The notes under the pieces are model-generated. The model saw only the letters and a program-made list of their open reading frames with translations. It did no database searches and was not told the origin of the DNA. Shown one piece after another: positions 1-45,122 of a DNA stretch of 45,122 bases. Numbering within the stretch: the first letter of the stretch is position 1; every line of letters starts with the position of its first letter. The DNA comes from a virus: positions 1 through 45,122 of the IMG/VR virus record IMGVR_UViG_3300036846_001448, one strand, 5' to 3'. The position numbers and the translations under genes are program-made.

Positions 1-127
1 ATAAGTGGCCACCCTTGATGCAACAAAATTGACCCTGGCAGACTGGGCCAAACGGCAGGATCCCGATGGGCGCACGCCCATGATCGCCGAGCTCTTGAGC
101 CAAAGTAATGAGGTCCTCGAGGACGCT
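1..127. repeat. Terminal direct repeat, left copy (identical to 44996-45122). Indicates a circular or circularly closed assembly with unique length 44,995 bp.
   Basis: Base-by-base comparison: ataagtggccacccttgatgcaac...gaggtcctcgaggacgct occurs at both ends with offset 44,995. Confidence 0.95.
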
Positions 128-15100: not shown

Positions 15101-16281
15101 TGGCGGCCAACAGGCTCCTTCTTCATCCCGACGTCCGCTCCGCCATTCGCGAGACTCTGGGGCCGGCCTATGAAGAACAGTTCATGCCTTGGTTACGGAC
15201 CATCATCAACGATCGCAACGGGTCCAACGCTCAGGGACTGAGCGATTTCTCCAAGATGGTCCGCACCCTGCGCTCCAACCTGGTAACCGGCACGTTGAGT
15301 TACAAGTTGTCGACGACCCTCCTGCAGTTGACCCACGCTCCGCGCATGTTGCTCTATACGAAGCCCGGAGCCTGGATGCAGGCCATGATCGACTTTGCCG
15401 CCCATCCCGCGGAGATGACCCAGCAGATCAGAGACCTTTCCCCCAACGAGATGCGCTTTCGCGGCGACTCGATCGATCGCGACATCCGCGAGATGATGCG
15501 CGACATGACCGGGCAGACGGGGTTTCGCAAGACGGTCTTGAAGGCCGGCTCGAAGACCTTGGAGTGGACCGACCATGCGCTGAGCTTTCCTCTCTGGCTC
15601 TCGGTCTATCGCGAGGGACTCAAGGAAAATGTCGACCTACCTGAGGAAAAGGCTAAGTATCTGGCCATGCAAAAAGCCGACTCTGCCATTCGCCTGGGAT
15701 TGGGATCCTCGGCACCCAAAGACATGGCGGCCATCCTCAGAGGAAATGATCTGGCTAAAGTGCTGACCATGTTCTACGGCTTCCACAATGGGATCTACGG
15801 GCAGATCAGCGACATGGTTCGTAACACCCGTTCGGTGCGCGATGTCCCCAAGCTGACCTACGGACTGGCCATGGCGGTTCTGGTTCCCGCGGTCCTATCC
15901 CACCTGGTGACCGGGGACGGTCCCAAGGATGATGAGAACCCGGGACTGTGGGCGGCCCAGCGAGCTCTGTTCTTCGGGCTCGACACCCTTCCTGGAGTGC
16001 GAGATTTGGCCACTGCCATGGAGCGCAAGTCGGATGTCAAGGTGTCTCCCCTGGCCGACCTGATGGAGCACACGGGGAAACTCCTGCTGGAGGCGAGAAA
16101 AGAACACAAGGACTGGGCCGGCATGGGCCTGGACGCTCTCCAGGTAGCCGGCGGGTGGGTTGGGGTTCCAGGCACCACTCAGATTCTCAAGCCGCTGCGC
16201 TACTGGCGCCAGGTCGAAAAGGGCAAGATCTCTCACCCAAATCTCTGGGATGCCTTCGTGGGCAGTGCGCCCCGAAAATAG
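9166..16281 (+). CDS. Giant internal virion / DNA-ejection protein (gp16-like position) with polyvalent-protein architecture
   Basis: 2371-aa uninterrupted ORF. A hydrophobic Gly-rich segment lies near aa 230-360. Pro/Gly/Glu linkers separate the modules. Motifs include TRLYHGSASGETEGKAWFTTDRSYARDY (nt ~10954-11040) and the HExxH motif FIHEPAHSYLE (His codon at 12601). The C-terminal third is long and helical. Confidence 0.75.
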   Translation: MSPDSSPVPQSSDLDFSTFTPLQETQQSSDLRQSLSYGVTQNPDEYAKLLKQQQSTGMSPQVAQSGAAQTQQAIDVESLQPDQMGITHPRTAAWTANPDNAAVAGAGELHRQTRIEQHAATIRAYQPTWRDAVTNAAQSAFNFMGGNGDLKNKVFSYPAFRLGIEALAGTEETLGNVGSFFGWHGDNATSLNQLQIAARSLEPGQFGAEETGLDTVARQAGPMIPAMLLTGGTGYLARTLGVSPLAAKVLAGITVGGMFTSDQAGNTYSSLRESGASEYQSRLAANRVAALTSPANILLGFQEMVPFLRDNPFLASLGLGGVQGASSQIAQNVVTGQKWYQGTAQGAVQGAAAQAGMHLGFGFLDSMGSIIAESEASQLKQRHLGKFEESLQSIFSGDQSLRVPVEQFDTYFQSRNMDPAVVASNLGVENYGEAKAIGEGAEVEIPQANFHARLEPEHQRGLMPDIVDPSIGMTHRQAEAATEELKQFAESGGLERLAQATAEVDEETKKSDEYKTVHEQIRQQYVAAGETPAVADDLATQHANVYSNLARESGLKPSELLNLYPPRIVSGEAPGAPPGEPMAPAAGEAEPPVEKGMTRLYHGSASGETEGKAWFTTDRSYARDYRPGSQLQYADVPTSELQSRLGWDEETQGPFKASTHNLELNSSETGPRKVMPAAGREPLYQSATIRSGKETLEKFGLDPGKSYTTREIAAALEARQREKYGTIDPTDRSPESLKKIAKWMQAEVEFEMQNPGKSGVGWYSEKFQRAIDIMGDTYPELKTDKNARDLMTALIAITSDGQKVVPNFMQAMDIYGRFREGGETEGKFTTSRGHQRIASIQNNLAVLQRLHDTMGPEGMHTYLMQEKTISELKQIAKKNGLELKSDYQAHIKMPMSAVEFGPKLGAFYANLMGAHGYLTMDRWWSRTFNRYRGTLLQAPTEAGLARFKELLGKPDMSNDEAIAATVSHRNSYADKGYKNGTEIEKAANTIYKAAFENLEDAPFNAKDRTFMLDAVNKAQQALQKKGYNLSVADIQAILWYYEKRLYGELGARQSADVSYEDAARRVVEAGQRGKQPVSGEPGEPPANGGAAASGLPVGEETFLQSAPGGGPAGEPAGGARGWFRIRPDGSYEIGKTSIGDLSTFIHEPAHSYLELISQLVKRPEASDALKADWQKIQDFLGAREGEPLTREQHEKWARANEQYMRQGKAPSQDLKGVFQRFAVWLSSIYHRATDLGVELSPEIHGVFDRLYASEQGVNRVADEDGPKLFNSAEEAGWTEADFKAYAQQHGRSIETAKAEILARLNEAAAREQASDRKAEASNVRAASTERIDAMPQYRAIKALRKGAMEDGTEVSISRDQLVSLIGEDRVKALQKQHPGLYRNEGGLDLETASEMMGFPDANTMISSMENSPRRGDAIEQATRQYMTAKHGDVRYDGTLPDAVRLAVENDVRASSIHKELAALQKRAAETESLRGKVAELKAQEKERRAALRAIQVAPIAAYRQAAKQAIDGKAVADIEPTRYLDQSRKFSREAFDALRRGDVQAAAAAKHKELMNHFLFREAAEAKEFIGKFEAYTQQAGQKGIQTRLGRAGGDFRDQFNRLMARYGLGAKPNQPTPRPLAQWAQEQYLNGEEPAVNASLFDEMRVINYRDASVAEARAVYDALRNIQKLASRQLETIVHGKKIVFATAVQEMSDRARSVNRQRPERVLERNRTFSEGALNLAKRGDALLLKVERMIERLDGGKTGPWHDNLWHLAADSQGREYALQEEVTKALGDQFAKMPAELRARMFDKVTVPGVDETVTRHDLVSWALNIGNEGNLDRLQKTFLAHGWDVSAIESGVSQLSRQEWDLVQNAWNTLEILRPHMVELERRMTGLPPVLVESKPFTRTLPDGETVHLEGGYYPIAYDPRYSAAGVTADASKTAQNQMEAGYVRAATSRGYTNERTGSAGPLLLDFERVLSSHTAKMVKDLTHREFMLAANRLLLHPDVRSAIRETLGPAYEEQFMPWLRTIINDRNGSNAQGLSDFSKMVRTLRSNLVTGTLSYKLSTTLLQLTHAPRMLLYTKPGAWMQAMIDFAAHPAEMTQQIRDLSPNEMRFRGDSIDRDIREMMRDMTGQTGFRKTVLKAGSKTLEWTDHALSFPLWLSVYREGLKENVDLPEEKAKYLAMQKADSAIRLGLGSSAPKDMAAILRGNDLAKVLTMFYGFHNGIYGQISDMVRNTRSVRDVPKLTYGLAMAVLVPAVLSHLVTGDGPKDDENPGLWAAQRALFFGLDTLPGVRDLATAMERKSDVKVSPLADLMEHTGKLLLEARKEHKDWAGMGLDALQVAGGWVGVPGTTQILKPLRYWRQVEKGKISHPNLWDAFVGSAPRK

Positions 16282-23247: not shown

Positions 23248-24558
23248 TCACCTCTGCTTGAAGTGCAGATACTCTCCGTCAAGGTAGGTTGGGACTGAAT
23301 CGAGAAACCCGTTGCGATTCTTGGCAATGATCAGCTCGTCTTCGCCGGTGAAGCGTGAGGTTTCGATGTCGATCGGACGATAGGGCAGGACTACCACGTG
23401 AGCGACCTCCTCGAGAGCGCCAGATTCTTTCAGGCTGTGCATATTGGGCTTGGAGTTGATATCCCGGCCTTGGGGCCGGGGGCTCTGCGAGAGCAACAGT
23501 ACGGCGACGTTCTCGGTTTTGGCGAAGTCGCGTAGCCGGTAGGCTACCTGCGCGACCTGTTCGCGGATTTCCTTCCCAGGGGCGGAGATGATCTGGGCAT
23601 AATCGACAACCAGCAACTGAACGCCGTGGTGGCGGCGCTCTCGCGTGGCGTTCCAGAGGAGTCTTTCAAGGGTGACTGTGGCGGCATCGGAGATGTAAAG
23701 CGGCAGTTGTCCCAGGGCCAGCAGTCCCGAGCGCACGCGCTCCCGTTCGGTCAGGTTCAGAAGGCGTGGCTCGCGTATCTTCCACACCGGCATGCCTTCG
23801 AGCAGGCAGGCGGTGATATCGATCCACGACTTTTTGCTCATCTCTCCAGAATGCACCAGTGTCGGAATTCCCCGCAGGAGGGCACCGGCGACGATCTGCC
23901 GGGCGAGAGTCGTCTTCCCGCGTGAAGGTGCGGCTCCGACCACCCATAGCTCGCCCAGCCTCATCCCTCCCCCTGTGAGTTCGTCCAGGCCGCGGATGCC
24001 TGTTGGGATGATTTGAACTTCTTGCGGGTCGTCTACAAGCGCCCTGATGCTTTCCAGGGCTAGCTCTGCGGAGCTCCAGACCTCGTTGCCAGAATTCTGT
24101 TCCGCGGCGTCAGTGAGGGCCTTCAGGTGATCCCACAAGACCTTGAGGGCTGGCTCGGATTGATCTTCGGCGCGGGCCATTGTGACTGAGCAAGCTTTTA
24201 TCATCTGGCGCAGCAGGCTTTTGTCTTTCACGATCTCGACGTAATCGCTGATGACTGGCTGCCGCGGAAGGCCCTCAGTCAGAGATGCCAGGTAGGACAT
24301 CCCGCCCATGCCGGCTAGTTCCTTGTGGCGGTCCAACTCCTGGCCGAGCGTGACTAGGTCAACGGTGTGATCGGAAGCGAGCAGTTCACCTACGCGGCGG
24401 TAGATGCGCTGATGAGAATCAAGCCAAAAATCATCCACTGCGAGTTTGTCTTGAGCCTCGAGGTAATACGCGTTGTCGAGCAAGGTGGCGCCCAGGATGG
24501 TTTTTTCGGCGTAGGTATCGGCAGGGAATCCGCGTTCCTCGGATACATGAGGGTTCAT
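23248..24558 (-). CDS. dnaB: Replicative DNA helicase, DnaB family
   Basis: 436 aa. N-domain AEKTILGATLLDNAYYLEAQDKLAVDDFWLDSHQRIYRRVGELL. Walker A GIRGLDELTGGGMRLGELWVVGAAPSRGKTTLA. Walker B LLVVDYAQII. Confidence 0.9.
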   Translation of the reverse strand: MNPHVSEERGFPADTYAEKTILGATLLDNAYYLEAQDKLAVDDFWLDSHQRIYRRVGELLASDHTVDLVTLGQELDRHKELAGMGGMSYLASLTEGLPRQPVISDYVEIVKDKSLLRQMIKACSVTMARAEDQSEPALKVLWDHLKALTDAAEQNSGNEVWSSAELALESIRALVDDPQEVQIIPTGIRGLDELTGGGMRLGELWVVGAAPSRGKTTLARQIVAGALLRGIPTLVHSGEMSKKSWIDITACLLEGMPVWKIREPRLLNLTERERVRSGLLALGQLPLYISDAATVTLERLLWNATRERRHHGVQLLVVDYAQIISAPGKEIREQVAQVAYRLRDFAKTENVAVLLLSQSPRPQGRDINSKPNMHSLKESGALEEVAHVVVLPYRPIDIETSRFTGEDELIIAKNRNGFLDSVPTYLDGEYLHFKQR

Positions 24559-25337
24559 GGCTGGTGTCTCTCCTTCAACTGCTCGTTGCGTAGGGCTCTC
24601 TGGCGTTCAATGTCGAGGTCGTACTGGGTTTTAGGCTTCGGTGCGCCGTTCAGGTGCGCCGGCTGGTCTTCGGGGAACAGCACCCCCCGCCAGCCGCTCG
24701 AAATTGCCTTCTCTAAACGCTGGTTGGGGTCGATGCCGTAGCTGTGCAGTTTTTCGAGGTCGGAAAGGATGTTGGACCTGGCCCGGTCGGTGAAGGGAAC
24801 ACGAGGGATCTTTCGCCGCATTTCCACGAAGCCTTCCCAGGAATCCCGGTGCAGCCATTCAGGGAGCTCGGGAGAGGGTGGTTGTGACCCTACCTGACCT
24901 TTCTTGACCTTTACACCATTAAGGGGGTGCAGGGGGTTCTGCCTATTAGTCAGAGTTTCCAGACTATTAGTCAGAGTTTCTGCAGATTCATTACTCTGAC
25001 TAATAGGCAGAGTTTTATGGTCTAAACCCTGACTGGCAGTCACCCTTTCCGTGGTCTCTAAACTCTGACTATTAGGCACCCTTTTAATGAGGTGATATTG
25101 TGAAGTTTTTCCCCTCCCCCCGCCCTTCAGAATCTCCATCCATCCGTCTCTTTGGAGGTTGGAAATAGACCTACACACAGCTCGTTCGGAGAGACGTGTT
25201 CCTTTCACAACGTCGGCAATGGAAGGAAAGCAGAAGCCATCCTGATCTGCCCTGTATGCGAGTCTCAGAAGGACGAGATTGTCCTGAACATTTCCGGGGC
25301 CGTTTTCCCAAACCCAATCCGCCCAGTGAATGCTCAT
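24555..25337 (-). CDS. Replication initiator (winged-helix, lambda O-like logic) with the origin iterons inside its own coding sequence
   Basis: 260 aa. N-terminal wHTH-like NLVLLRLAYRADQDGFCFPSIADVVKGTRLSERAVCRSISNLQRDGWMEI. ATGA overlap with dnaB. The repeat cluster 24942-25076 encodes the repetitive linker ...ETLTNSLETLTNRQ... Confidence 0.65.
   Translation of the reverse strand: MSIHWADWVWENGPGNVQDNLVLLRLAYRADQDGFCFPSIADVVKGTRLSERAVCRSISNLQRDGWMEILKGGGRGKTSQYHLIKRVPNSQSLETTERVTASQGLDHKTLPISQSNESAETLTNSLETLTNRQNPLHPLNGVKVKKGQVGSQPPSPELPEWLHRDSWEGFVEMRRKIPRVPFTDRARSNILSDLEKLHSYGIDPNQRLEKAISSGWRGVLFPEDQPAHLNGAPKPKTQYDLDIERQRALRNEQLKERHQP
24942..25076. repeat. Iteron cluster, the candidate origin of replication
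   Basis: CTATTAGTCAGAGTTTC occurs at 24943-24959 and 24964-24980 (direct, 21-bp phasing). ACTCTGACTAATAGG at 24993-25007 is the exact inverse. AACTCTGACTATTAGG at 25061-25076 is inverse with one mismatch. An A/T-richer stretch (cttttaatgaggtgatattgtgaagttttt) follows at 25081-25110. Confidence 0.65.
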
Positions 25338-29067: not shown

Positions 29068-29586
29068 TTGATGGAAATGGCAATGTCTTCACCTCTTCCC
29101 GACGCGGGCCGAGAGCGCATTAGCATCAACGATCCTTCGTCGGAGCACGGAGACCTGGTACGGATGCGGACACGTTTGCTGCTGGAATTGGTGGATGAAT
29201 TAGGCCGAGACCGGCGCAAGGAAATCGTGGCCACCATACGAGCTCTTGATGAGGCCATCGCAACGCGTGTTCGGCGAGCTCCAGAGACGCCCTTTGGGCG
29301 CTTTAAGGATGTCCGCAGCGCTATCAAGCAACACCTATGTGAGCGCGGCTCGGCCGCACCGCCAGAGGAGATTGTAGAAGCTTTGTGGCAAGGAGGATTT
29401 CGCCGCGAGCCCGTGTCCATTGATAATCCTAGCGCTCAGCAAATTGAGGAGCACACCCGCACTCGGATAAGGAAGTCGCTCGGTTTTCATCTCAACAATC
29501 CTCGTGGCATTTTGGTCCACCTCTTTCGTGAGGAGCATGGCCTCGTAGGCTTATGGGACTGGGAAGCGGAGAGGTTCGAGCGGTGA
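29068..29586 (+). CDS. Hypothetical protein (172 aa) in the accessory cassette
   Basis: Clean ORF. Arg-rich helical N-half, possible winged-helix-like segment AIKQHLCERGSAAPPEEIVEALWQGGF. No confident family call. Confidence 0.5.
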   Translation: MMEMAMSSPLPDAGRERISINDPSSEHGDLVRMRTRLLLELVDELGRDRRKEIVATIRALDEAIATRVRRAPETPFGRFKDVRSAIKQHLCERGSAAPPEEIVEALWQGGFRREPVSIDNPSAQQIEEHTRTRIRKSLGFHLNNPRGILVHLFREEHGLVGLWDWEAERFER

Positions 29587-29774
29587 GCAGTTTAGAAACC
29601 ATCCGCGATCGAATCGTGCGGGCGGCCTTTTGTGCCTACATTATGGCCAAAGAAAATTGCGATCAGGACACGGCTCTCGGAATCATGACGCAGCTATGCG
29701 TGCTCTGCCAGCTCGCTCTTGGGATCAGTACTGAGGAGGCGTTTGCCGACGAGGTTAAAAGCAATGATGACTGA
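29583..29774 (+). CDS. Hypothetical small protein (63 aa)
   Basis: GTG 29583 overlaps the upstream stop (GTGA). The track start at 29553 would overlap by 34 nt. Confidence 0.4.
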   Translation: MSSLETIRDRIVRAAFCAYIMAKENCDQDTALGIMTQLCVLCQLALGISTEEAFADEVKSNDD

Positions 29775-30201
29775 GCAGCAAAAAATTGCTCTAGCGTTTC
29801 CTTGTGTGGAAGCGGAGCAGACCATCGACCGGCGCTTCTACTGGGAGATCGCCGACTGGAATCTTTGCCTGACGATGAACGTGGGCTTTGAGTGAATTGA
29901 GTTCTTTGATGGGTGGCCCGTGTGGCACGCCTCGATTGCCAGTCATGACCGCAAGCACCAGCGCACGCTGCACATTTCTGAATGGACCAGGGCGATGCAC
30001 GAAAAAGCGCGGAGAATTTTAACCGACAGTCTGCATGGCGTAGGCGGCGACTGGCAGATGTGGGAAGACGGCGAATGCGCCAAACACACTCGCCGCCGGC
30101 TTACTCCCGCGGAGATGCGGCGCCTCTTCCTGATCCTGCCCGAGGCGCCGGTCTTCACCCACGGCAAGGCGCTCGAATCCCTTGCCCTAATTAAGCCATG
30201 A
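29764..30201 (+). pseudogene. Hypothetical gene interrupted by a single in-frame TGA (29893-29895). This is a nonsense-disrupted gene, or two cistrons, or a read-through candidate.
   Basis: ATG 29764 opens MMTEQQKIALAFPCVEAEQTIDRRFYWEIADWNLCLTMNVGFE-TGA-IEFFDGWPVWHASIASHDRKHQ... The track ORF 29920-30201 (GTG start) is in the same frame (both coordinates are 1 mod 3). Confidence 0.45.
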
Positions 30202-30220
30202 CGCATACACGTCACGACGT

Positions 30221-30463
30221 CTAGACGCTGAGCTGCGGCAATCCTTTAGCCTTGAGCGCCAGGTTGAAGCCGGTCAGGGCCAGGGCCTGGAGGCTGGTGC
30301 CTTCGGACATGGCGACGGTTTGCAGGCGGATCCACTCGTGTTTGGGAAGGCGCACGGTGATGGCCACATTTGCTCCCCGGCCGCGGGTACGTTGGCCGGC
30401 GGCGGGGGGAGCGATTCTATTGGAGTGCTTCTGGGTAAAGGCTTGCAGTTGGTTCTTCTTCAT
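30221..30463 (-). CDS. Ribbon-helix-helix (CopG/ParG-like) DNA-binding protein, candidate centromere-binding partner of ParA
   Basis: 80 aa with SD AGGAGA. Basic disordered N-tail, then ANVAITVRLPKHEWIRLQTVAMSEGTSLQALALTGFNLALKAKG, the beta-strand/helix/helix pattern of RHH proteins. Last gene of the parA operon. Confidence 0.65.
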   Translation of the reverse strand: MKKNQLQAFTQKHSNRIAPPAAGQRTRGRGANVAITVRLPKHEWIRLQTVAMSEGTSLQALALTGFNLALKAKGLPQLSV

Positions 30464-30472
30464 ATGGTTCTC

Positions 30473-30604
30473 CTAGGCGGTCAATTGCTGTTCTGCTGGG
30501 GGCGCGGGGGCGGTGTTTTTGTGCGGAGCTTTTTGTTTGGCTTTGGCTAAATCGCGGTTTCTCTGGTGGCGCAGCCGGTCTCGGTCTCTGCGCTTTTGGG
30601 TCAT
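30473..30604 (-). CDS. Possible 43-aa highly basic peptide between parA and the RHH gene
   Basis: My own translation gives MTQKRRDRDRLRHQRNRDLAKAKQKAPHKNTAPAPPAEQQLTA. GAGGA lies 9 nt upstream, and the stop overlaps the SD of the RHH gene. Not in the ORF track (<60 aa), so weak. Confidence 0.3.
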   Translation of the reverse strand: MTQKRRDRDRLRHQRNRDLAKAKQKAPHKNTAPAPPAEQQLTA

Positions 30605-30660
30605 GTTGGGGGGTCCTCATGGGGTTAGTCTCTGCTTTCCTGGTTGAGGGTTGAGGTTGA

Positions 30661-31278
30661 TTATGAGAGTTGCTGCCTGAGCCACTTCCACAAGCAGCGC
30701 ACCTCGGCGGCGGCTTTGCCCTGGGATTCAAATTCGGTCACCGCGCGTCCTGAGGAGATGGCGCGCGAGTAGGCCCGGCGATCGGAGATCTGCCCGGGAA
30801 AGACGGGCAGACCGTAGGTGCGCAAGACGGTGCGCGACTCTTCGACCTCGGGGGCCCGCACGGGGCAGGCAGAGAGCACAAACACCGCCTGGCGGGAGAG
30901 TGCCCGAACCATGTCGACAGCTCGCCCTACGGCCACCAGGTCAAAGGCGGTAGGCCGGCAGGGGATGACCAGGAGATCGGAGCGCAGGGCGACCTGGGTG
31001 GCATCGGGCGCGGTATGGGGAGCGGTGTCGACCACCGCCAGGGTGGTTTCGTCAGAGCGCTCCCCATCGAGGACCGCGGCCAGCTGGGAAGCTGAAACTG
31101 TGACCACCGATGGATATTCAGCGGTGCGCGAGCTTTTCCAGATAGCCGCCGAACACTGGGGATCGGTGTCGATGATCACCACCTGCTCGCCGGCCTGCTG
31201 GGCGGCCACCGCGACGTGTACGGCGAGGGTGGTTTTGCCGGAGCCGCCTTTCTGGCCCAGGAGGGTGAGGACTTTCAC
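30661..31278 (-). CDS. parA: ParA/Soj-type partition ATPase (small type Ib form without an N-terminal HTH)
   Basis: 205 aa. Deviant Walker A MKVLTLLGQKGGSGKTTLA. Also VVIIDTDPQ and DLLVIPCRPTAFDL. Confidence 0.85.
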   Translation of the reverse strand: MKVLTLLGQKGGSGKTTLAVHVAVAAQQAGEQVVIIDTDPQCSAAIWKSSRTAEYPSVVTVSASQLAAVLDGERSDETTLAVVDTAPHTAPDATQVALRSDLLVIPCRPTAFDLVAVGRAVDMVRALSRQAVFVLSACPVRAPEVEESRTVLRTYGLPVFPGQISDRRAYSRAISSGRAVTEFESQGKAAAEVRCLWKWLRQQLS

Positions 31279-31511
31279 GCGGTTGGGCCCTCCGGGGCGT
31301 CATCATCGATTTCCTGTTCCAGTTTCTCGAGCACATTGATGCGCACTTCGTGGTCGAGGGCGATGCGCAGGGCATACTGGCGCAGGCGGTTCAGACCCAC
31401 CGCCATGCGGTTGACGTTCTTGGTTAGATCGCTTACGTCGTGGCTCAACAACTCCAGATGCGTAGTGAGGGCGTCGATGCGCTCATCGATGGTGCGGGGC
31501 TTGTTGTTCAT
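31275..31511 (-). CDS. Small coiled-coil protein (78 aa) upstream of and overlapping parA
   Basis: ATG 31511 (AAAGG upstream; alternative ATG at 31535). MNNKPRTIDERIDALTTHLELLSHDVSDLTKNVNRMAVGLNRLRQYALRIALDHEVRINVLEKLEQE. 4-nt overlap with parA. Confidence 0.5.
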   Translation of the reverse strand: MNNKPRTIDERIDALTTHLELLSHDVSDLTKNVNRMAVGLNRLRQYALRIALDHEVRINVLEKLEQEIDDDAPEGPTA

Positions 31512-31552
31512 TGGGCGCCTTTCAATTTTCTCCATCCGGCGGCCAGCAGTTG

Positions 31553-31690
31553 TCAAGCGGTGAACACAACTGCAAGGCATATTGTGACAAGGACCAAAAA
31601 CAACAAGATCCGCCACCAGAGGTAGATCTGGTAGGCCACGAAGGCAACCGTTAAAACGAGAGCAAAAAAAATTCCAAATGTGTTTTTCAT
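31553..31690 (-). CDS. Possible 45-aa double-TM hydrophobic peptide at the head of the par operon
   Basis: My own translation gives MKNTFGIFFALVLTVAFVAYQIYLWWRILLFLVLVTICLAVVFTA. There is no clear SD, and the start codon lies inside a 12-bp palindrome. Below the track cut-off. Confidence 0.35.
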   Translation of the reverse strand: MKNTFGIFFALVLTVAFVAYQIYLWWRILLFLVLVTICLAVVFTA

Positions 31691-31699
31691 GACGTCATG
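31688..31699. promoter_or_regulatory. Perfect 12-bp palindrome CATGACGTCATG at the start of the par operon
   Basis: Read directly. It overlaps the ATG of the 45-aa ORF, and related ATGACG/CGTCAT arms occur at 41197-41214 and 30198-30214. Confidence 0.5.
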
Positions 31700-31753
31700 G
31701 TATCACGGCGTAATGGCGCGGGGAGTGGTGCCGGAGGTTCCCTGCTTGACGGC

Positions 31754-31785
31754 ACAAAAAAGGCCGCGGGGTTTAGCCGCGGCCC
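31754..31785 (-). terminator. Rho-independent terminator on the minus strand after the 31808 gene
   Basis: GGCCGCGG (31762-31769) / CCGCGGCC (31777-31784) 8-bp stem. On the minus strand it is followed by TTTTTTG (plus-strand A-run 31756-31761). Confidence 0.7.
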
Positions 31786-34273: not shown

Positions 34274-34704
34274 CTAAGTCCACAGGCGTTGGCCGCGGCT
34301 TCGGCGGAGGCCGGCCATTAGAGTACAAGGCGGAATTTAACACCCTCGCCACGAACTATTGCCTGCTCGGTGCCAAAGATACGCAACTAGCTCATTTCTT
34401 TGGAGTTAGCACTGAAGCAGTCAGTGTCTGGAAGCGCCAATACCCAAAGTTTCTACAAGCAATTAAGTCGGGTCGTGAAGGTGCTGATGCCGCGGTTGCT
34501 AAAGCGCTTTATCGTAAAGCTTTAAATGGCGACACCGCGGCCTGTATTTTCTGGCTAAAGAACAGACATCCGGAAGAATGGCGCGACACCAGGGATCTTC
34601 GCCATTCGGGAATGGTCACCCTGGCGGCTTTGATCTCAGGTGAAGAAGAAGAATCTGAACCAAAGCCCATCCAACAAATCGAAGCTTCGCGCGACGAAGA
34701 ATGA
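34270..34704 (+). CDS. terS: Terminase small subunit
   Basis: 144 aa. GGRPLEYKAEFNTLATNYCLLGAKDTQLAHFFGVSTEAVSVWKRQYPKFLQAIKSGREGADAAVAKALYRKALNGDTAACIFWLKNRHPEEWRD is the classic terS/gp3-type HTH pattern. Overlaps terL. Confidence 0.85.
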   Translation: MTKSTGVGRGFGGGRPLEYKAEFNTLATNYCLLGAKDTQLAHFFGVSTEAVSVWKRQYPKFLQAIKSGREGADAAVAKALYRKALNGDTAACIFWLKNRHPEEWRDTRDLRHSGMVTLAALISGEEEESEPKPIQQIEASRDEE

Positions 34705-36203
34705 CCACAGCCAAGCAACAACGGGCTACGGAACGCATTCGCCGCTGGCGTCACGATCCGTTGGCATTTGTTCGCGAGCTGTTCCACGCTGAGCCGGATG
34801 CCTGGCAGGCGGATGTGCTCCAGCTGATGGCCAAGCCAGGGCGCAAACATATTGCCATGAAGAGCTGCGCCGGCCCGGGCAAAACCGCGGTGCTGGCCTG
34901 GGCAGGATGGCATCGGCTGGTCTGCTTCTGCACCCTCAAAGAGCATCCCAAAGGCTCTGCAGTATCAATTACAAGCGACAATTTGCGCGACAACTTATGG
35001 TCGGAGCTGGCCCGCTGGCAGAATGAAAGCCGATTTCTGCTGCAGACGTTTCAGTGGAACAAAGAAAGAGTCACGGCCATCGATCATCCCGAAACGTTCT
35101 TCCTGGCGGCTAAAGGATGGAACAAAACCGCGGATCTCGAGACCATCGGAAGAACGCTCAGCGGCATGCACTCGCGCTTCCCGTTCTACCTCATCGATGA
35201 ATCCGGCGACATCCCGCCCAACATGCTGCGCTCCGCCGAACAAGGGCTGACTAGCTGTGAAGATGGGTTGATTATCACCGCCGGCAACACCACCTCGCAG
35301 GTTGGAATGTTGTACGAGGTTTGCACCAACCAGAGAGATCACTGGGATGTGGTGTCGATCACCGGCGATCCGGATGATCCTAAGCGAAGCCCGCGGGTGG
35401 GTCTTGAATGGGCTAAACAGCAGATCGCGCTTTACGGAAGAGAAAACCCCTGGGTCATGGCCTATGTGCTGGGCCAGTTTCCACCCGGCAGCATTAACGC
35501 TTTGCTTTCAGTCGATGAAGTGGAAGCGGCCATCAACCGCAATGCCCCCATTGAGAGCTTCGACTGGAGCGAAAAACGGCTGGGTGTTGATGTGGCGCGC
35601 TTCGGGGACGATCGCACCGTGATCTTTCCGCGGCAGGGCATTTGCGCCTTTCTGCCTATTGTGATGAGGCATCAAAGAGGGTCTTCGGTTTCGGTCGACA
35701 TCGCCAATCGGGTGATGAACAAGAAGATCGAGTGGAACGCCAATTCGGCGCCCAATGCCCTGAATTCAGGACCGCTGATCACTCAGGAATTCTTTGATGA
35801 CACGGTTGGATGGTCACATGGAGCGGTTGATGTGTTGCGCGCCAGCGGACATTCGCCGATTGCGGTGCAATTCGACAAACCGTCGTCAAATCCTCGGTAC
35901 GTGAACCTGAGAGCGGAAATGTGGATGAAGATGGCCGAGTGGGTAAAGGAGCACGGCTGCCTGCCGCAGCTGCCAGAGATCATCTCGGAGCTGACGGCGC
36001 CCACCTACTTCTTCTCCAATGGCAAGTTCCAGATCGAGGCTAAAGACCAGATTAAGAAGAGGATAGGCAAATCGCCCGATCTGGCAGATGCTTTGGCGCT
36101 TACGTTCGCGATCCCTGATATGCCGGCTGGAATGCGGCTTCCAGGGATCAACCGGACCAGGCAGCGCCAGGAATACGACCCCTACGCGAAGATCCTTTCG
36201 TAA
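34701..36203 (+). CDS. terL: Terminase large subunit
   Basis: 500 aa. Walker A-like MKSCAGPGKTAVLA. Walker B FPFYLIDESGDI. C-terminal nuclease-like LGVDVARFGDDRTVIF...SPDLADALALTF. Confidence 0.9.
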   Translation: MTTAKQQRATERIRRWRHDPLAFVRELFHAEPDAWQADVLQLMAKPGRKHIAMKSCAGPGKTAVLAWAGWHRLVCFCTLKEHPKGSAVSITSDNLRDNLWSELARWQNESRFLLQTFQWNKERVTAIDHPETFFLAAKGWNKTADLETIGRTLSGMHSRFPFYLIDESGDIPPNMLRSAEQGLTSCEDGLIITAGNTTSQVGMLYEVCTNQRDHWDVVSITGDPDDPKRSPRVGLEWAKQQIALYGRENPWVMAYVLGQFPPGSINALLSVDEVEAAINRNAPIESFDWSEKRLGVDVARFGDDRTVIFPRQGICAFLPIVMRHQRGSSVSVDIANRVMNKKIEWNANSAPNALNSGPLITQEFFDDTVGWSHGAVDVLRASGHSPIAVQFDKPSSNPRYVNLRAEMWMKMAEWVKEHGCLPQLPEIISELTAPTYFFSNGKFQIEAKDQIKKRIGKSPDLADALALTFAIPDMPAGMRLPGINRTRQRQEYDPYAKILS

Positions 36204-36360
36204 GCGCGCTACTGGAGGCTGACAAAGGGGTGGTTGGGAGGGTAATGGTTACCTGCTCCGAGCGCCTGCGGCCGGCGCCTGGCTGGCCTCGAGGGCCGAC
36301 CACCCCTCAAAGGGGACCCTAGCCGGCGGGGGAGGGCCCCAATGGCGTCGGGCGCCGGGC

Positions 36361-36395
36361 CTAGTTCCTGGCGAGCACGTCCATGAAATTTTCAG
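36361..36395 (+). repeat. Bipartite repeat unit 1 (CTAGTTCC-N17-AAATTTTCAG) in the non-coding locus
   Basis: CTAGTTCC at 36361-36368 and AAATTTTCAG at 36386-36395. Same architecture as 36568-36602. Confidence 0.8.
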
Positions 36396-36567
36396 ACTTT
36401 TCTAGGGAAAATTTTATAAGCTGAAGTTCGCAGCGGCGGCGTGGTATGGACACGCAATAGTCGACACGGAGACTAGAAACCCGTGATAGCCCAGTAGGCG
36501 GCGCAGGCTCCGGAACGCGCTATTTCCGTACCTGAAAAGTCTAGCCGGATGACGGCCCGGCCCGCTG

Positions 36568-36602
36568 CTAGTTCCCGCCGGGGACGCCAACCAAATTTTC
36601 AG
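36568..36602 (+). repeat. Bipartite repeat unit 2 (CTAGTTCC-N17-AAATTTTCAG)
   Basis: CTAGTTCC at 36568-36575 and AAATTTTCAG at 36593-36602, 207 bp from unit 1. Both units are followed by TAGGGAA. Confidence 0.8.
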
Positions 36603-36668
36603 CTTAATATGGCGGTAGGGAACCACTTCGCTTGCGGAGTGGCCGGTGAACATTGAGTTCGCCACCAG

Positions 36669-36694
36669 GCCGGCAGTGGTTGCACACTGCCGGC
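36669..36694 (+). terminator. Perfect 10-bp GC-rich hairpin (GCCGGCAGTG-gttgca-CACTGCCGGC) followed by TTTCC. Possible weak terminator or regulatory hairpin.
   Basis: Read directly. The U-tract is only 3 nt. Confidence 0.35.
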
Positions 36695-36743
36695 TTTCCT
36701 CAGAATTTTATGAGAGACTGACGATTCCACTGAGGCTTCTGTA

Positions 36744-36947
36744 GTGCTCTACTTCAACACTTCCAACGGACAACATATCGTCATTCTCGAACCAGAGAAC
36801 CTTGAAGCACTGAAGACCGGGCAGTTTGCTGTTTCCTCTAACAAGGCAGTCATGATCGCGTACACATCATTACTGAAAGGGAAGGGTCTGGTGATGTGGG
36901 GCGGTTTCTGGACTCGCTGTCACGGCGCTGCGTGGTGCCCAACGTGA
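36744..36947 (+). CDS. Hypothetical small protein (67 aa)
   Basis: GTG start with TGAGG 8 nt upstream. LYFNTSNGQHIVILEPENLEALKTGQFAVSSNKAVMIAYT is protein-like. The C-terminal third is odd (Trp/Cys/Gly-rich). Confidence 0.4.
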   Translation: MLYFNTSNGQHIVILEPENLEALKTGQFAVSSNKAVMIAYTSLLKGKGLVMWGGFWTRCHGAAWCPT

Positions 36948-37045
36948 CCTCGCCGCGGCTGGCGGGGATGCTGATGCGGAGGGGATTCGCGCCGCGCCAT
37001 AATGATTTGGTGGATGTTTGGGAGAGATGATCCAGCCAGGAATTT

Positions 37046-37264
37046 TTACCGTGAAGGCGCCGCGGCAGAGGTCAACTGTCCGGCGACGCGCTTGTCGAGG
37101 TCATGCACTGTTTCGATCAAACGATCGATCTTGGCTCCCTGGATGGCGATTCCATCGCGCAATGGATCAATTTTGGCGTTGATATACAGGATGATGATGG
37201 TGGTTTGTCCAGCCATCAGCGCCAAAGTGGTGCTGATGAGAGTAAGTAGTTGGAAGTTTGTCAC
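37046..37264 (-). CDS. Small membrane protein with an N-terminal TM and a coiled coil (72 aa), last gene of the recombinase operon
   Basis: GTG start with SD AAGGAGA. TNFQLLTLISTTLALMAGQTTIIILYI, then IDPLRDGIAIQGAKIDRLIETVHDLDKRV. Confidence 0.6.
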   Translation of the reverse strand: MTNFQLLTLISTTLALMAGQTTIIILYINAKIDPLRDGIAIQGAKIDRLIETVHDLDKRVAGQLTSAAAPSR

Positions 37265-37282
37265 TGATTTCTCCTTACAAAG

Positions 37283-37960
37283 TTAGCGGGCGTCGAGGAT
37301 ATTCTTGACGCCCTGGTGAGAGATCTGAAACCCCTGCGCCTGCATGGCTGCGGCGATGGCGCGTAAACTCTCGCCCTGCTCGCGAATGCGCTTCACTACC
37401 TCAATCGCTTTCTGCTGCTCCGGATCCTTCTCGAGCGCGCCCTCGGCGGTGCGCACGAAGCCGAAGGGGACAGTGCCGCCCAGGAAGCGGTGGCGCTTTT
37501 TCTGGTCGGCTTTGACTTCCTGAATGCGCTCCCGGGTACGATCGCGTTCCGCCTCGGCCACCGCGCTCAGGATGGTGAAGACCAACTTCGAGATGCCATT
37601 GCCGGTGACGTCGCCGCCCAGGTCGATCATGTGCAGGGAAACGCCGGCGGCTTTGAGATCGGCGAGGACGGCCAGGGCGTCGAGGGCGCTGCGAAACATG
37701 CGATCCAGTTTTGGGGTGATGACTACGTCGCCGGGCTGGAGACGGGCGAGCAGCTTCTGGCCCTGGGGGCGATCGCGGAGGGGGACCGAGCCGGAGACCC
37801 CTTTTTCGATGAACATCTGATCCAGGGTGAGCCCCTGCATCATGGCGTAGCCTTCGATCTTGCGCTGTTGTGTCTCCAGGCTCTCGCCCTGTTCCAGGCG
37901 CGGGTCTTTGACTTCGGTCTGCTTTTTGGTGGAGACGCGGGTGTAGCCGTAGACTGCCAT
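37283..37960 (-). CDS. Small serine recombinase (resolvase/invertase family) with a C-terminal HTH
   Basis: 225 aa. MAVYGYTRVSTKKQ contains the catalytic Ser. Also VVITPKLDRMFRS, LSAVAEAERDRTRERI and a C-terminal helix-turn-helix SLRAIAAAMQAQGFQISHQGVKNIL. Confidence 0.85.
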   Translation of the reverse strand: MAVYGYTRVSTKKQTEVKDPRLEQGESLETQQRKIEGYAMMQGLTLDQMFIEKGVSGSVPLRDRPQGQKLLARLQPGDVVITPKLDRMFRSALDALAVLADLKAAGVSLHMIDLGGDVTGNGISKLVFTILSAVAEAERDRTRERIQEVKADQKKRHRFLGGTVPFGFVRTAEGALEKDPEQQKAIEVVKRIREQGESLRAIAAAMQAQGFQISHQGVKNILDAR

Positions 37961-38206
37961 TTACTCCCCCTGGTGCGCAGACAACCGCTGCGCATTTAAG
38001 CGAATCACCATTCCTACGTGCTCCACCGTGACCGGATGGAAGTCACCATCAGAGATGGCATTGGGATCGAAGAACACCCACCCTTTGGGTAGGTAGTCTT
38101 CGACTGTGCGCGTGCTCCACTGCTCGATTGCGTGGGCGTTAATATCGGCGATGAACCGCCGTGCCGCAGCCCGCGATGCCTTGACGGTCAATTGGTCTCG
38201 TTTCAT
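37961..38206 (-). CDS. Hypothetical protein (81 aa) immediately upstream of the recombinase
   Basis: ATGA overlap with the upstream gene and abuts the recombinase start. No confident family call. Confidence 0.5.
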   Translation of the reverse strand: MKRDQLTVKASRAAARRFIADINAHAIEQWSTRTVEDYLPKGWVFFDPNAISDGDFHPVTVEHVGMVIRLNAQRLSAHQGE

Positions 38207-38379
38207 ACTTTTTCCTTGTCTTTTCTCTTTGAGATCAATTCTGCATACGCCAATTCGCTGGCTTCGTCCCGGCTCTTCCCGGCGGCCATATACTTCTTCA
38301 TCAGCTCAAAATGCTTGGCGAGCTGCGTCTGCGCTCGTCTCGCCCTGGTCTTGTAGTCGCGATTATTTCCTAAACCCAT
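38203..38379 (-). CDS. Hypothetical small helical basic protein (58 aa), first gene of the recombinase operon
   Basis: Start set to ATG 38379 (SD AGGAGAG). MGLGNNRDYKTRARRAQTQLAKHFELMKKYMAAGKSRDEASELAYAELISKRKDKEKV. Confidence 0.5.
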   Translation of the reverse strand: MGLGNNRDYKTRARRAQTQLAKHFELMKKYMAAGKSRDEASELAYAELISKRKDKEKV

Positions 38380-38413
38380 ATTCTCTCCTGTAAAAGGTGT
38401 AAACCTGTATATA

Positions 38414-38442
38414 ACAGTAAAGGAAGAAGTGGCGTGTGTCAA
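38414..38442 (-). promoter_or_regulatory. Sigma70-like promoter for the recombinase operon (TTGACA-N17-TACTGT on the minus strand)
   Basis: tgtcaa at 38437-38442 (= TTGACA) and acagta at 38414-38419 (= TACTGT), with a 17-bp spacer. About 30 nt upstream of the SD of the 38379 gene. Confidence 0.45.
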
Positions 38443-38465
38443 ACTGCACAAGGAGGCTTACAAGA

Positions 38466-38672
38466 ATGATCCTGAAGTTTCAGAGACCGTTGGCTAGCAG
38501 CAAGGCGGATCCTCCGGTTCTTGTCTGCGATAAGAGTCGTGTGTTTGCCAGGCTGGTTCCCTTCGCCGACTACCAGCACTTTTTTGAGTTCGTGGATAAG
38601 TTCTATGCCAAATGTCTGGTTCGGAATGGTGCGATTGTGATCAGGAAGGTAATCGAAGATCAAGGATGGTGA
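38466..38672 (+). CDS. Hypothetical small protein (68 aa)
   Basis: Start set to ATG 38466 (SD AAGGAGG 9 nt upstream). MILKFQRPLASSKADPPVLVCDKSRVFARLVPFADYQHFFEFVDKFYAKCLV... Confidence 0.5.
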   Translation: MILKFQRPLASSKADPPVLVCDKSRVFARLVPFADYQHFFEFVDKFYAKCLVRNGAIVIRKVIEDQGW

Positions 38673-38776
38673 AGCTCGAGGATATGCGGGCCGGAAATAT
38701 GGAAGCGGTAGCAGAGGCGATCGACAGGATGGTGGAGGAAGACCTATGAAGCTGTCCACCAGGAGAAGGCTATAAA

Positions 38777-38989
38777 ATGAGCGGAACCCTTCAGATGTGG
38801 ACCATCTACTACAACCCGCTCGATCACCCGGGGAAATTCGTGGTCCGCCGTTGGGTGGGCCTTGTGCCCTCGAACACCTACGTCCTGGCGCCCACGCTGG
38901 AGATGGCCAGAGCTCACATCCCGCCCGGTCTCTACTGCCTGGGACGCTACGCGGAGGACGAGGTTCAGATTGTGGAGACTTGGATCTGA
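38777..38989 (+). CDS. Hypothetical small protein (70 aa)
   Basis: MSGTLQMWTIYYNPLDHPGKFVVRRWVGLVPSNTYVLAPTLEMARAHIPPGLYCLGRYAEDEVQIVETWI. Well-formed globular composition. Confidence 0.6.
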   Translation: MSGTLQMWTIYYNPLDHPGKFVVRRWVGLVPSNTYVLAPTLEMARAHIPPGLYCLGRYAEDEVQIVETWI

Positions 38990-39000
38990 AACAGTTCACC

Positions 39001-39297
39001 ATGCCGGTCACTACCCCGCGCTGCGACTTTTGCAGTAAGCCCGAAGTCTGGGCCCGCTATCCCGCGCAATCGTTTATCTACCGTCATATCGACGACCTGG
39101 CCTTGATCTCCGGCGAAGACTGGCTGGCTTGCCAGGAGTGCGCCACCCTGGTGGGCGAAGAAAAGTGGGACGCCCTGCTTTTACGAGCCGTTCACTCCTT
39201 TCGGATGGACCATCCCGATATCCCTCCAGACTTCGTTTGGAGAGAGGTGGGGCGGCTGCAAAAGCAGTTTCGCGACCACCGGAGGCCAATCCAATGA
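39001..39297 (+). CDS. Hypothetical Cys-containing (CxxC...CxxC) protein (98 aa)
   Basis: Start set to ATG 39001. PRCDFCSKPEVWARYPA...DWLACQECATLV. The N-terminal part of the track ORF overlaps the previous gene and was rejected. Confidence 0.55.
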   Translation: MPVTTPRCDFCSKPEVWARYPAQSFIYRHIDDLALISGEDWLACQECATLVGEEKWDALLLRAVHSFRMDHPDIPPDFVWREVGRLQKQFRDHRRPIQ

Positions 39298-39337
39298 TCA
39301 AGCCCGACTGCTTCAGTGAAGCCAGTGAAGGAGAATA

Positions 39338-39574
39338 ATGACCCTCAAACGCGGGGACGCTGTGTGGGCCACCATTGAAGGGCAGCGCCACTTCGCCGGC
39401 GTGCTGCTGGCGTCCGACTACACCCTGGCACTGCATTTCTGTAACGGACCGGTGGCGATGGGTGGGGCAGATAACTATGGCGTGGTGGCTTTGTGGTGGG
39501 ACGAGCCCAGCCGGGTCTGGCGCGATCTCGAAACCAAAATGGAAGTCGGGATTGAGCCGGCGGAGTGGAAATGA
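39338..39574 (+). CDS. Hypothetical small protein (78 aa)
   Basis: SD GAAGGAGA directly upstream. Beta-rich (SH3/Tudor-like feel). Confidence 0.55.
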   Translation: MTLKRGDAVWATIEGQRHFAGVLLASDYTLALHFCNGPVAMGGADNYGVVALWWDEPSRVWRDLETKMEVGIEPAEWK

Positions 39575-39575
39575 A

Positions 39576-39773
39576 ATGACAGAGTTAGTCTGGGATACCT
39601 ACAAGTGTGAGTGTGGCGGAACCGCAGTCATGCCCCTGGTGAGCCTGGTCGCGCACTGCGACCAATGCCCGCGAGTATTCGCGGCGGTGAGTATTGGTGA
39701 TCGACGATGGTTCGCGAACATCGACGAAGCCAACGCCGCTTATGGTGCCGCCCAGAAGTTGAGGCAAATGTGA
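39576..39773 (+). CDS. Hypothetical zinc-ribbon protein (65 aa)
   Basis: Start set to ATG 39576. YKCECGGTAVMPLVSLVAHCDQCPRVF. Confidence 0.5.
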   Translation: MTELVWDTYKCECGGTAVMPLVSLVAHCDQCPRVFAAVSIGDRRWFANIDEANAAYGAAQKLRQM

Positions 39774-40222
39774 TGGCCTATGGAGCGACCGAGGTCCCGG
39801 TCTCGAAATCCCAGGAAGCCATTCGCAAACTGATCTACGCCCATAAGGGCACCGGGGTCATGCTGGTCAGCCAACCCCCGCGGGAAGGATTCGAGGCCAT
39901 GGTCACCATGGCGGACACCGCCTACCACATCCGCGTCATGGCCACCTGCAAAGAGGTGTCCCGAAAACAGAAGGGCAGCTGGCGCGACAAGTCGGCCCTT
40001 GTCTATCAAAGCCACGTGGAGCAGGAAGAGCGGCGCGTGTGGCGGGTCTTGTTCTGGCACCTGAAAGCGATGTTTGAGGCCGCCGACGCGGGGGTGATCG
40101 ACATTCGCGACATCATCATGCCCTACGTGGTGCTGCGCGATGGGCGAACCCTGGCGGACCACATCAAGCCCCGCATGGCGGATCTGGTGACCACCGATCC
40201 GGAGCGACTGCTGTCGGCGTAA
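39773..40222 (+). CDS. Conserved-looking hypothetical phage protein (149 aa)
   Basis: ATG 39773 overlaps the upstream stop (TGATG). ...EQEERRVWRVLFWHLKAMFEAADAGVIDIRDIIMPYVVLRDGRTLADHI. Confidence 0.55.
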   Translation: MAYGATEVPVSKSQEAIRKLIYAHKGTGVMLVSQPPREGFEAMVTMADTAYHIRVMATCKEVSRKQKGSWRDKSALVYQSHVEQEERRVWRVLFWHLKAMFEAADAGVIDIRDIIMPYVVLRDGRTLADHIKPRMADLVTTDPERLLSA

Positions 40223-40225
40223 CAA

Positions 40226-40243
40226 CCCCTGATGCCCGTAAGA
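40226..40243 (+). promoter_or_regulatory. Conserved intergenic motif, copy 3 (CCCCTGATGCCCGTAAGA), identical to 44011-44028
   Basis: 18/18 identity. Followed, as in copy 4, by CCCTAC about 12 nt downstream and then the start codon (ATG 40263). Confidence 0.45.
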
Positions 40244-40262
40244 GAGGCCGCCTGGCCCTACG

Positions 40263-44995: not shown

Positions 44996-45122
44996 ATAAG
45001 TGGCCACCCTTGATGCAACAAAATTGACCCTGGCAGACTGGGCCAAACGGCAGGATCCCGATGGGCGCACGCCCATGATCGCCGAGCTCTTGAGCCAAAG
45101 TAATGAGGTCCTCGAGGACGCT
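44996..45122. repeat. Terminal direct repeat, right copy. It contains the SD-proximal region and the first 41 codons of the capsid gene (GTG at 45000).
   Basis: Identical to 1-127. Confidence 0.95.

Follow-up and report, generated by a model that had tools for sequence, protein, structure and literature searches.

How a tailed phage that lacks a recognisable integrase is kept in its host is the question raised by the 45,122-nt viral sequence analysed here (IMG/VR record IMGVR_UViG_3300036846_001448, hereafter the window), in which a leftward operon at positions 30221-31690 encodes a ParA-type ATPase and a small ribbon-helix-helix (RHH) protein. We lean, with moderate confidence, towards the reading that this region is a complete and functional type Ib (ParF/ParG-like) partition locus derived from a plasmid backbone, and that the phage is a low-copy plasmid prophage. 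A partition (par) locus together with the phage's own replicon, a small recombinase and the lack of the integrase carried by its relatives makes a low-copy circular plasmid prophage the most likely form of maintenance. For comparison, 139 loci from plasmids, phages and metagenome contigs were fetched, and these are referred to by L-numbers; the coordinates of the features discussed are collected in Table 1.

The ATPase, whose N-terminus reads MKVLTLLGQKGGSGKTT, carries the deviant Walker A sequence GQKGGSGKTT at residues 8-17 (motif KGGxxGK[ST], with the signature lysine present) and lacks an N-terminal helix-turn-helix (HTH), its residues 1-198 aligning to residues 1-199 of the 206-aa ParF, so that both features ascribed to it in the preliminary description are borne out. 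It matches the Pfam families CbiA and AAA_31, PHROG 164 ('ParA-like partition protein', E=3e-37) and, over the full length of the profile (1-203 of 203 positions), the NCBIfam model NF041546 'ParA family partition ATPase', for which it scores 174 bits against a cut-off of 180; the next-best NCBIfam model reaches 50 bits, and those of MinD, SopA and RepA 20-27 bits. The closest solved relative is ParF of TP228 (4dzz, E=6e-21), while no MinD or Soj chain in the PDB was matched at 1e-5. Directly 3' of the ParA stop codon, at 30642-30660, lies a TCAACC TCAACC CTCAACC repeat (coding strand) that is kept in L004.

The second gene of the pair lies on the same strand, 197 nt downstream of parA, and no terminator-like site was found on the operon strand between the two. 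An AlphaFold2 model of its 80-aa product, built from a 104-sequence alignment, has a predicted local distance difference test score (pLDDT) of 85.8, rising above 93 at residues 30-80, and consists of a disordered or low-confidence segment (residues 1-30), an extended segment (31-39) and two helices (41-54 and 58-72); it supersedes a single-sequence model with a pLDDT of 60 and the wrong topology. The best Foldseek matches of the model are Arc, AmrZ, ORF56, CdbA, CopG and PutA, all of them RHH proteins, with target template-modelling scores of 0.7-0.8 and root-mean-square deviations of 1.3-1.5 Å over about 43 residues. Aligned to ParG (1P94) with hhalign, the protein places 43 columns in register with ParG residues 32-74, at E=0.003 and a probability of 10%. 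The modelled fold and this in-register alignment together point to the architecture of ParG, with sequence similarity to ParG that is marginal, and the strand-helix-helix behind a disordered tail agrees with the earlier proposal of an RHH partner of ParG/omega type with a basic N-tail. Searched against PDB sequences, a profile hidden Markov model of the family returned chance-level matches, none below E=0.1, and the open reading frame (ORF) itself matches Pfam Antitox_RHH at E=0.0045, under the family cut-off. An exhaustive HMMER search placed the family in 116 representative clusters; its consensus C-terminus is ...KGLPxL, and the window protein and that of L001, the closest members, end in LSV.

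Relatives of both genes are found together on plasmids. The best tblastn matches of ParA, at 55-61% identity, are parA genes of 14-65 kb plasmids from Klebsiella, Comamonas, Serratia, Laribacter, Thiothrix, Nitrosomonas, Zymomonas and rhizobia, and directly 3' of these genes stands an 83-98-aa 'hypothetical' gene that is a homologue of the 80-aa ORF (35-54% identity). Homologues of the RHH protein, annotated 'hypothetical protein', occur in 34 plasmid records, all of which also hold a ParA match, and the RHH gene adjoins parA in every record checked. The proposed type Ib-like cassette of ParA and RHH protein is in this way homologous, as a unit, to plasmid parA and its downstream small gene. 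Within the phage collection, the ParA of highest identity belongs to L003, a P2-like phage deposited as a Haematospirillum plasmid, which also has a small ORF downstream of ParA and a serine 'DNA invertase'.

Both ends of the par operon are marked by a 32-bp repeat array with an 8-bp period and the box RCGYC. These arrays were missed by generic repeat finders run on the par region; they were found by comparing the operon flanks with those of relatives by eye, and were then tested by pattern search. The 24-bp core ACGYCNTG-N8-RCGYCATG has two sites in the window, one in each array (the second at 30197-30220), against 0.07 expected, and just 10 of the fetched 139 loci contain it, plasmid pHLHK22 among them, always immediately before the operon or after the RHH gene of the same par family. 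The upstream site also precedes the operon in L004, L006, L007, L008 and the plasmid L002, and the downstream array is kept after the RHH gene in L004, L046, L047 and L048; L005 and L008 have related 8-bp arrays at that place. Plasmid relatives hold 5-11 tandem 8-bp units at both positions: those of L001 and L002 are TATGACGC/TAGCGTCA units that have a (C/T)ATGACGC box in common with the window, and those of Nitrosomonas p1 are GAAACCAT, eleven times upstream, and GCAACCAT, five times downstream. We predict that the two arrays are the cis-acting centromere of the par locus. The palindrome at 31688-31699, named earlier as one centromere candidate, turns out to be part of the upstream array, whereas the other candidate, the repeats at 36204-36743, dissolves into two loose copies of an element of about 40 nt, neither centromere-like nor iterons and free of par-type boxes, within the insertion hot spot that follows the terminase gene.

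The layout can be compared with that of characterised partition systems. Cassettes of small proteobacterial plasmids, such as Comamonas plasmid II (NZ_LN879548), Laribacter pHLHK22, Nitrosomonas eutropha p1 and those of Zymomonas, are true homologues with the same gene order and 8-bp arrays on both sides; there the two genes either abut or overlap and each array has 5-11 units, whereas the window has four-unit arrays and a 197-nt split, in a phage genome. The parFGH system of TP228 resembles the window locus in its ATPase and in the architecture of the partner. Its parH is a single site of about 100 bp upstream of parF with the box ACTC, in contrast to the two short flanking arrays of RCGYC boxes found here. 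ParG binds parH at tetramer boxes with 4-bp spacers (PMC3130281), an arrangement that the short boxes of the window, with their 8-bp period, share. Further differences from parFGH are the extra small ORFs before parA, the remnant between parA and the RHH gene, and the marginal similarity of the latter's product to ParG. Multi-repeat centromere sites are also known from pB171, and the window arrays are much shorter than those. The pB171 par2 locus, likewise of type Ib, has the order parC1-parA-parB-parC2 (PMC4270457), with sites upstream and downstream of both genes, a layout that the candidate sites of the window share.

On the basis of these comparisons, the following mechanism is proposed. 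The par locus would have been acquired whole from a plasmid backbone. Its 80-aa RHH protein would bind, as dimers, the RCGYC boxes that recur every 8 bp in both 32-bp arrays, with the upstream array doubling as an autoregulatory operator, and the disordered basic N-tail of the bound protein would stimulate the ATPase of nucleoid-bound ParA dimers, such that replicated copies are pulled apart along a gradient of ParA-ATP. Copying of the phage would fall to its O/iteron/DnaB replicon and the resolution of dimers to the small serine recombinase. Of these steps, DNA binding, ATPase stimulation and autoregulation by the RHH protein, together with the resolvase role, are the ones that we infer.

Whether such a locus serves a phage depends on what surrounds it. 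The first and last 127 nt of the window (1-127 and 44996-45122) are identical, which is an assembly overlap that leaves a unique length of 44,995 nt; the genome is circular or circularly permuted, in support of the earlier statement that it is complete, and the scaffold/protease gene at the window end is followed by the capsid gene at the window start. PHROG scans identified the virion genes of a podovirus, comprising portal, protease/scaffold, major head, tail tube A/B, internal virion proteins and fibres, as well as a tail-fibre N-terminal adaptor and TerS/TerL; the only lysis-category feature recognised is a peptidase/endolysin-like domain in a 712-aa virion protein. The portal shares 58% identity with its counterpart in Bordetella phage BPP-1 and 45% with the epsilon15 protein, and from TerS to the fibres the gene order is that of BPP-1. 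Portal identity and gene order thus indicate a BPP-1/epsilon15-like module, and podoviruses of this group are known to be temperate. The module is not that of T7 proper; the preliminary description had named a T7-like one. The closest genomic relatives, L012 and L013 (TerL 69% identical), are embedded in 190-249 kb contigs of metagenome-assembled genomes of Alloacidobacterium and Silvibacterium. Since these relatives stand as prophages within Acidobacteria chromosomal contigs, relatives of the phage do integrate, and its own host is probably a soil member of the Acidobacteriota.

In three of the four relatives that share the virion module (L054, L055 and L057), a tyrosine integrase gene follows the tail-fibre genes; the 10-kb stretch upstream of TerL was searched in 21 relatives and contained no integrase. 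The window was described as having neither a tyrosine nor a large-serine integrase, and this holds: none was found among its ORFs of at least 150 aa, and a six-frame search with a profile of the relatives' integrases returned no tyrosine integrase. The phage does have its own replicon, with an initiator and a DnaB-like helicase as had been proposed, yet its origin is placed inside the initiator gene and not at 36204-36743. There, at 24938-25084, lie four 21-nt iteron copies, internally palindromic, with a consensus of about TCTGACTATTAGTCAGAGTTT, plus a further related pair; the lambda origin likewise has its iterons within the O gene. The early region is lambdoid, with RecT and a RecE-like exonuclease, and a megablast search of it against phage and plasmid collections gave no near-identical DNA.

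A wider scenario, in which a BPP-1-like lineage of Acidobacteriota that normally integrates has one sub-lineage that swapped its tyrosine integrase for a cassette of the ParF/ParG-like, proteobacterial-plasmid type, with the two arrays and a resolvase, is about as easy to doubt as to accept, and we put it forward tentatively. An exchange between parABS and an integrase is known from the cluster A mycobacteriophages, which the window resembles in having par in place of the integrase that its relatives carry.

The small serine recombinase, the remaining element of the proposed set, is real (PF00239, residues 3-156). Its size falls in the resolvase range (about 180-230 aa), among solved structures it is closest to the gamma-delta and Tn3 resolvases (E=3e-14), and a short C-terminal HTH is predicted from its sequence. 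The gene lies in a block of about 4 kb (36204-40262) between TerL and a GNAT gene, a block that about 25 relatives and BPP-1 lack and whose cargo differs even between variants that are 95-98% identical, as with a 487-aa secreted protein in L138; the block looks like an insertion hot spot for morons. At 60-70% identity, homologues abound in soil metagenomes. Their surroundings were compared in two chromosomal loci (L014 and L016), 80 metagenome loci and two close variants, and proved to be mixed, favouring neither a resolvase nor an integrase. In eight loci (L015, L060, L064, L082, L084, L091, L097 and L130), a recombinase relative lies within about 10 kb of a ParA-like gene, the two being directly adjacent in L097 and L130 and the ParA and RHH proteins of L082 being 59% and 40% identical to those of the window, a set of neighbourhoods that fits the par-plus-res pattern of plasmid backbones. 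We favour dimer resolution as the role of the enzyme, with integrase or invertase activity as alternatives; the multimer resolvase of the preliminary description is weakened by the presence of relatives of about 70% identity in chromosomal mobile elements as well. No convincing res-like set of repeats was found at 36000-39700, and the recombinase gene is co-transcribed with upstream ORFs, without an intergenic res site before it.

The par locus, the replicon, the circular sequence and the lack of an integrase, read together from the sequence, suggest extrachromosomal maintenance; a number of observations weigh against it. A circular contig is expected equally for circularly permuted virion DNA or for an excised phage. 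The window arrays have four units each, fewer than those of plasmid relatives, parA and the RHH gene are uncoupled by 197 nt of remnant DNA, and ParA falls 6 bits under the NF041546 cut-off. A search for a CI/Cro-type repressor among the small ORFs gave only a weak AlpA/Xis-like HTH, and no toxin-antitoxin or addiction module was recognised. In L008, a 32-kb IMG/VR viral contig (region 7541-10842), the O/DnaB module of the window recurs with its par cassette (ParA 58%, RHH 45% identical, arrays present), which comes directly after a tyrosine integrase gene, at a distance of 1.4 kb. The large terminase and portal of this contig belong to other PHROG families than those of the window, so that the same backbone is here joined to another phage. 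Ochrobactrum phage POI1126, a podovirus with a demonstrated plasmid-prophage state, likewise has par genes and an integrase gene (PMC5492332). Since L008 and POI1126 hold both, a par cassette alone is compatible with integration.

This bears on the best-surviving alternative, which we regard as unlikely though of some weight, namely that the phage is an integrating temperate phage whose 225-aa serine recombinase is the integrase, with par stabilising the circular form ahead of integration or once it has been excised, or allowing a switch between the integrated and the plasmid state. A small serine recombinase serves as integrase in the filamentous phage phiRSM. The best PHROG match of the window enzyme is 'integrase' (E=3e-43), ahead of 'DNA invertase' (E=6e-36), its best NCBIfam matches are weak ones to XisF and CcrB, homologues of about 70% identity stand beside chromosomal genes in a 1.78-Mb Acidobacteria contig and in other long contigs, and the window has an AlpA/excisionase-like HTH gene. 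Against this, the enzyme is resolvase-sized and lacks the large C-terminal domain typical of serine integrases, with resolvases as its closest solved relatives and with the eight ParA-neighbouring loci in its family. Several of the chromosomal relatives, moreover, have a tyrosine integrase of their own nearby (L063, L096, L103, L110, L111 and L126), so that integration in these loci does not have to depend on the serine enzyme. ARAGORN found no tRNA gene in the window, in which the Rfam scan was empty as well, and no att-like site was defined, no search having been aimed at one.

Conservation of the cassette speaks to a second and less probable alternative, that the locus is a plasmid-derived passenger without a role in inheritance, the phage being lytic or pseudolysogenic or using the cassette to displace plasmids by incompatibility. 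The early region is indeed highly mosaic, with morons swapped between close relatives, no repressor was found, and the DNA that separates parA from the RHH gene is in decay; it differs in each relative, and the ORFs ahead of parA vary too. Yet ParA, the RHH protein and both arrays are kept in relatives that range from 97% to 58% ParA identity while the surrounding DNA has been exchanged. The close relatives with the cassette are fragments from sister JGI samples and one Logan run. In two of them, L047 (JGI 3300036785) and L048 (Logan SRR11833744), which come from other samples, the RHH gene is nucleotide-identical to that of the window although the DNA beside it differs. Codon differences are strongly biased to synonymous ones: 23 synonymous to 8 non-synonymous for ParA against L004 (97% identical), 10:1 (L004) and 7:0 (L046) for the RHH gene, and 22:6 (L138) and 39:11 (a second comparison) for the serine recombinase, which shows all three genes to be under purifying selection. 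A ParA-like ATPase with a non-partition role of MinD/McdA type, such as the positioning of replication or assembly sites in lytic growth, is very improbable: ParA/MinD-family ATPases do position many cargos, and McdB appears as a distant, low-ranked entry in the Foldseek list, but MinD models score only about 21-26 bits, and the closest relatives are without exception plasmid parA genes accompanied by the same partner and repeat arrays.

As a plasmid prophage, the phage would have company. The podoviral phage-plasmids, which include POI1126 of the Bcep22-like group and the F116 community, likewise combine a tailed-phage virion module with their own replicon and a par operon. Phage-plasmids are almost entirely siphoviruses and myoviruses, with a few podoviral ones listed (Pfeifer et al., PMC7969092). 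Given that list and the published podoviral plasmid prophage with par genes (PMC5492332), the earlier emphasis on an unusual combination was overstated. For POI1126 the plasmid state has been demonstrated (PMC5492332), whereas here it is predicted from the sequence, and the phages differ in that the window has a BPP-1/epsilon15-like virion lineage and a presumed Acidobacteriota host. With podoviral plasmid prophages already known (POI1126, F116 group), the novelty of this credible candidate would lie in the virus lineage and the host group; a literature search found no report of a phage-plasmid for Acidobacteriota or for BPP-1-like phages. If the wider scenario above is true, the phage would be, as far as literature searches show, the first of the phage-plasmids to be described from Acidobacteriota. 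Should the plasmid lifestyle hold, the known phage-plasmids would gain a lineage of podoviruses and a major soil phylum that has been little studied. It would also provide a natural case of a partition system replacing an integrase within one virion lineage, and the iteron origin with O and DnaB, combined with the 1.5-kb par locus and both its arrays, could be used for stable vectors in Acidobacteria, a phylum without genetic tools. Whatever the lifestyle, the arrays of 8-bp boxes offer a testable centromere for a widespread, uncharacterised RHH partition family.

Table 1. Positions of the features of the window that are discussed in the text
Feature	Position	Strand	Basis or remark
2371-aa ORF, internal-virion-protein position	9166-16281	+	Named from its position and from comparison with the 2052-aa bbp10 of BPP-1
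DnaB-like replicative helicase	23248-24558	-	PHROG 19, E=5e-73
Lambda O-like replication initiator	24555-25337	-	PHROG 678, E=6e-25
AlpA/excisionase-like HTH protein, 93 aa	28308-28589	+	Pfam HTH_17, E=0.015; PHROG 66 'excisionase and transcriptional regulator', E=6e-4
Downstream array, parC2-like (candidate centromere)	30197-30228	-	Four 8-bp units GCGTCTAG ACGTCGTG ACGTGTAT GCGTCATG (coding strand, 30228-30197); overlaps RHH stop codon
RHH partner, 80 aa, putative centromere-binding protein	30221-30463	-	ParG-like architecture (disordered basic N-tail and C-terminal RHH)
43-aa ORF, in-frame deletion remnant of two cargo genes	30473-30604	-	Comparison with L047/L048
ParA, ParF-like (type Ib) Walker-type partition ATPase, 205 aa	30661-31278	-	Pfam, PHROG, NCBIfam and PDB match
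78-aa coiled-coil ORF	31275-31511	-	Stop overlaps ParA start (GTGA)
45-aa hydrophobic ORF, putative, first in operon	31553-31690	-	ORF call
Upstream array, parC1-like (candidate centromere)	31688-31719	-	Four 8-bp units GCGCCATT ACGCCGTG ATACCATG ACGTCATG (coding strand, 31719-31688); overlaps first start codon of operon
Intrinsic terminator closing the upstream gene	31761-31785	-	Nine-pair stem with 8 G-C pairs, then TTTTTT
Large terminase	34701-36203		PHROG; not helicase
Small serine recombinase, 225 aa	37283-37960	-	PF00239, E=9e-32

All five minus-strand ORFs listed for the operon in the preliminary description are present, and the strong terminator that precedes them would shield the operon from upstream transcription, which makes the par operon a transcription unit of its own. 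The small ORFs ahead of parA are variable. The position of the 45-aa ORF is held by a 65-aa coiled-coil ORF in L004 and by a hydrophobic ORF of about 75 aa in L006, the latter read from the sequence without a called gene. The 78-aa ORF has no Pfam, PHROG or NCBIfam match, and its place in L004 is taken by a non-homologous 65-aa helical ORF. The 43-aa ORF, earlier listed as a basic peptide of the operon, consists of the first three codons (MTQ) of a 111-aa ORF joined in frame to the last 40 aa of a 109-aa ORF, both of which are present in L047 and L048; as an in-frame fusion of these two, it is a deletion remnant and not a partition component.

On the other side of the RHH gene, the adjoining two-gene block g73-g93 (29553-30201) is found inverted downstream of the terminase gene in L019 (8379-8788; ParA 72% identical), so that the block appears to have been translocated or inverted. 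The 93-aa HTH gene, kept in L005 and L006, stands first in a rightward cluster that separates the RecET operon from the par operon. Among the virion genes, the 2371-aa ORF has counterparts of 55-59% identity in four IMG/VR relatives.

Within the hot spot, the GC-rich non-coding DNA after the terminase gene contains two copies of an element, at 36360-36400 and 36567-36610 and 207 nt apart, that read CTAGTTCC..G.ACG.. and then AAATTTTCAG; they have no Rfam match and might be promoters or a small RNA. A 68-aa ORF at 38466-38672 (+) has an N-terminus that resembles, by eye, those of Phd/YefM antitoxins; as a candidate Phd-like antitoxin it was rejected, with no PDB sequence match and no toxin partner recognised. 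The stretch that contains this ORF is 97-98% identical in L017 and L138 and is more conserved than the neighbouring genes.

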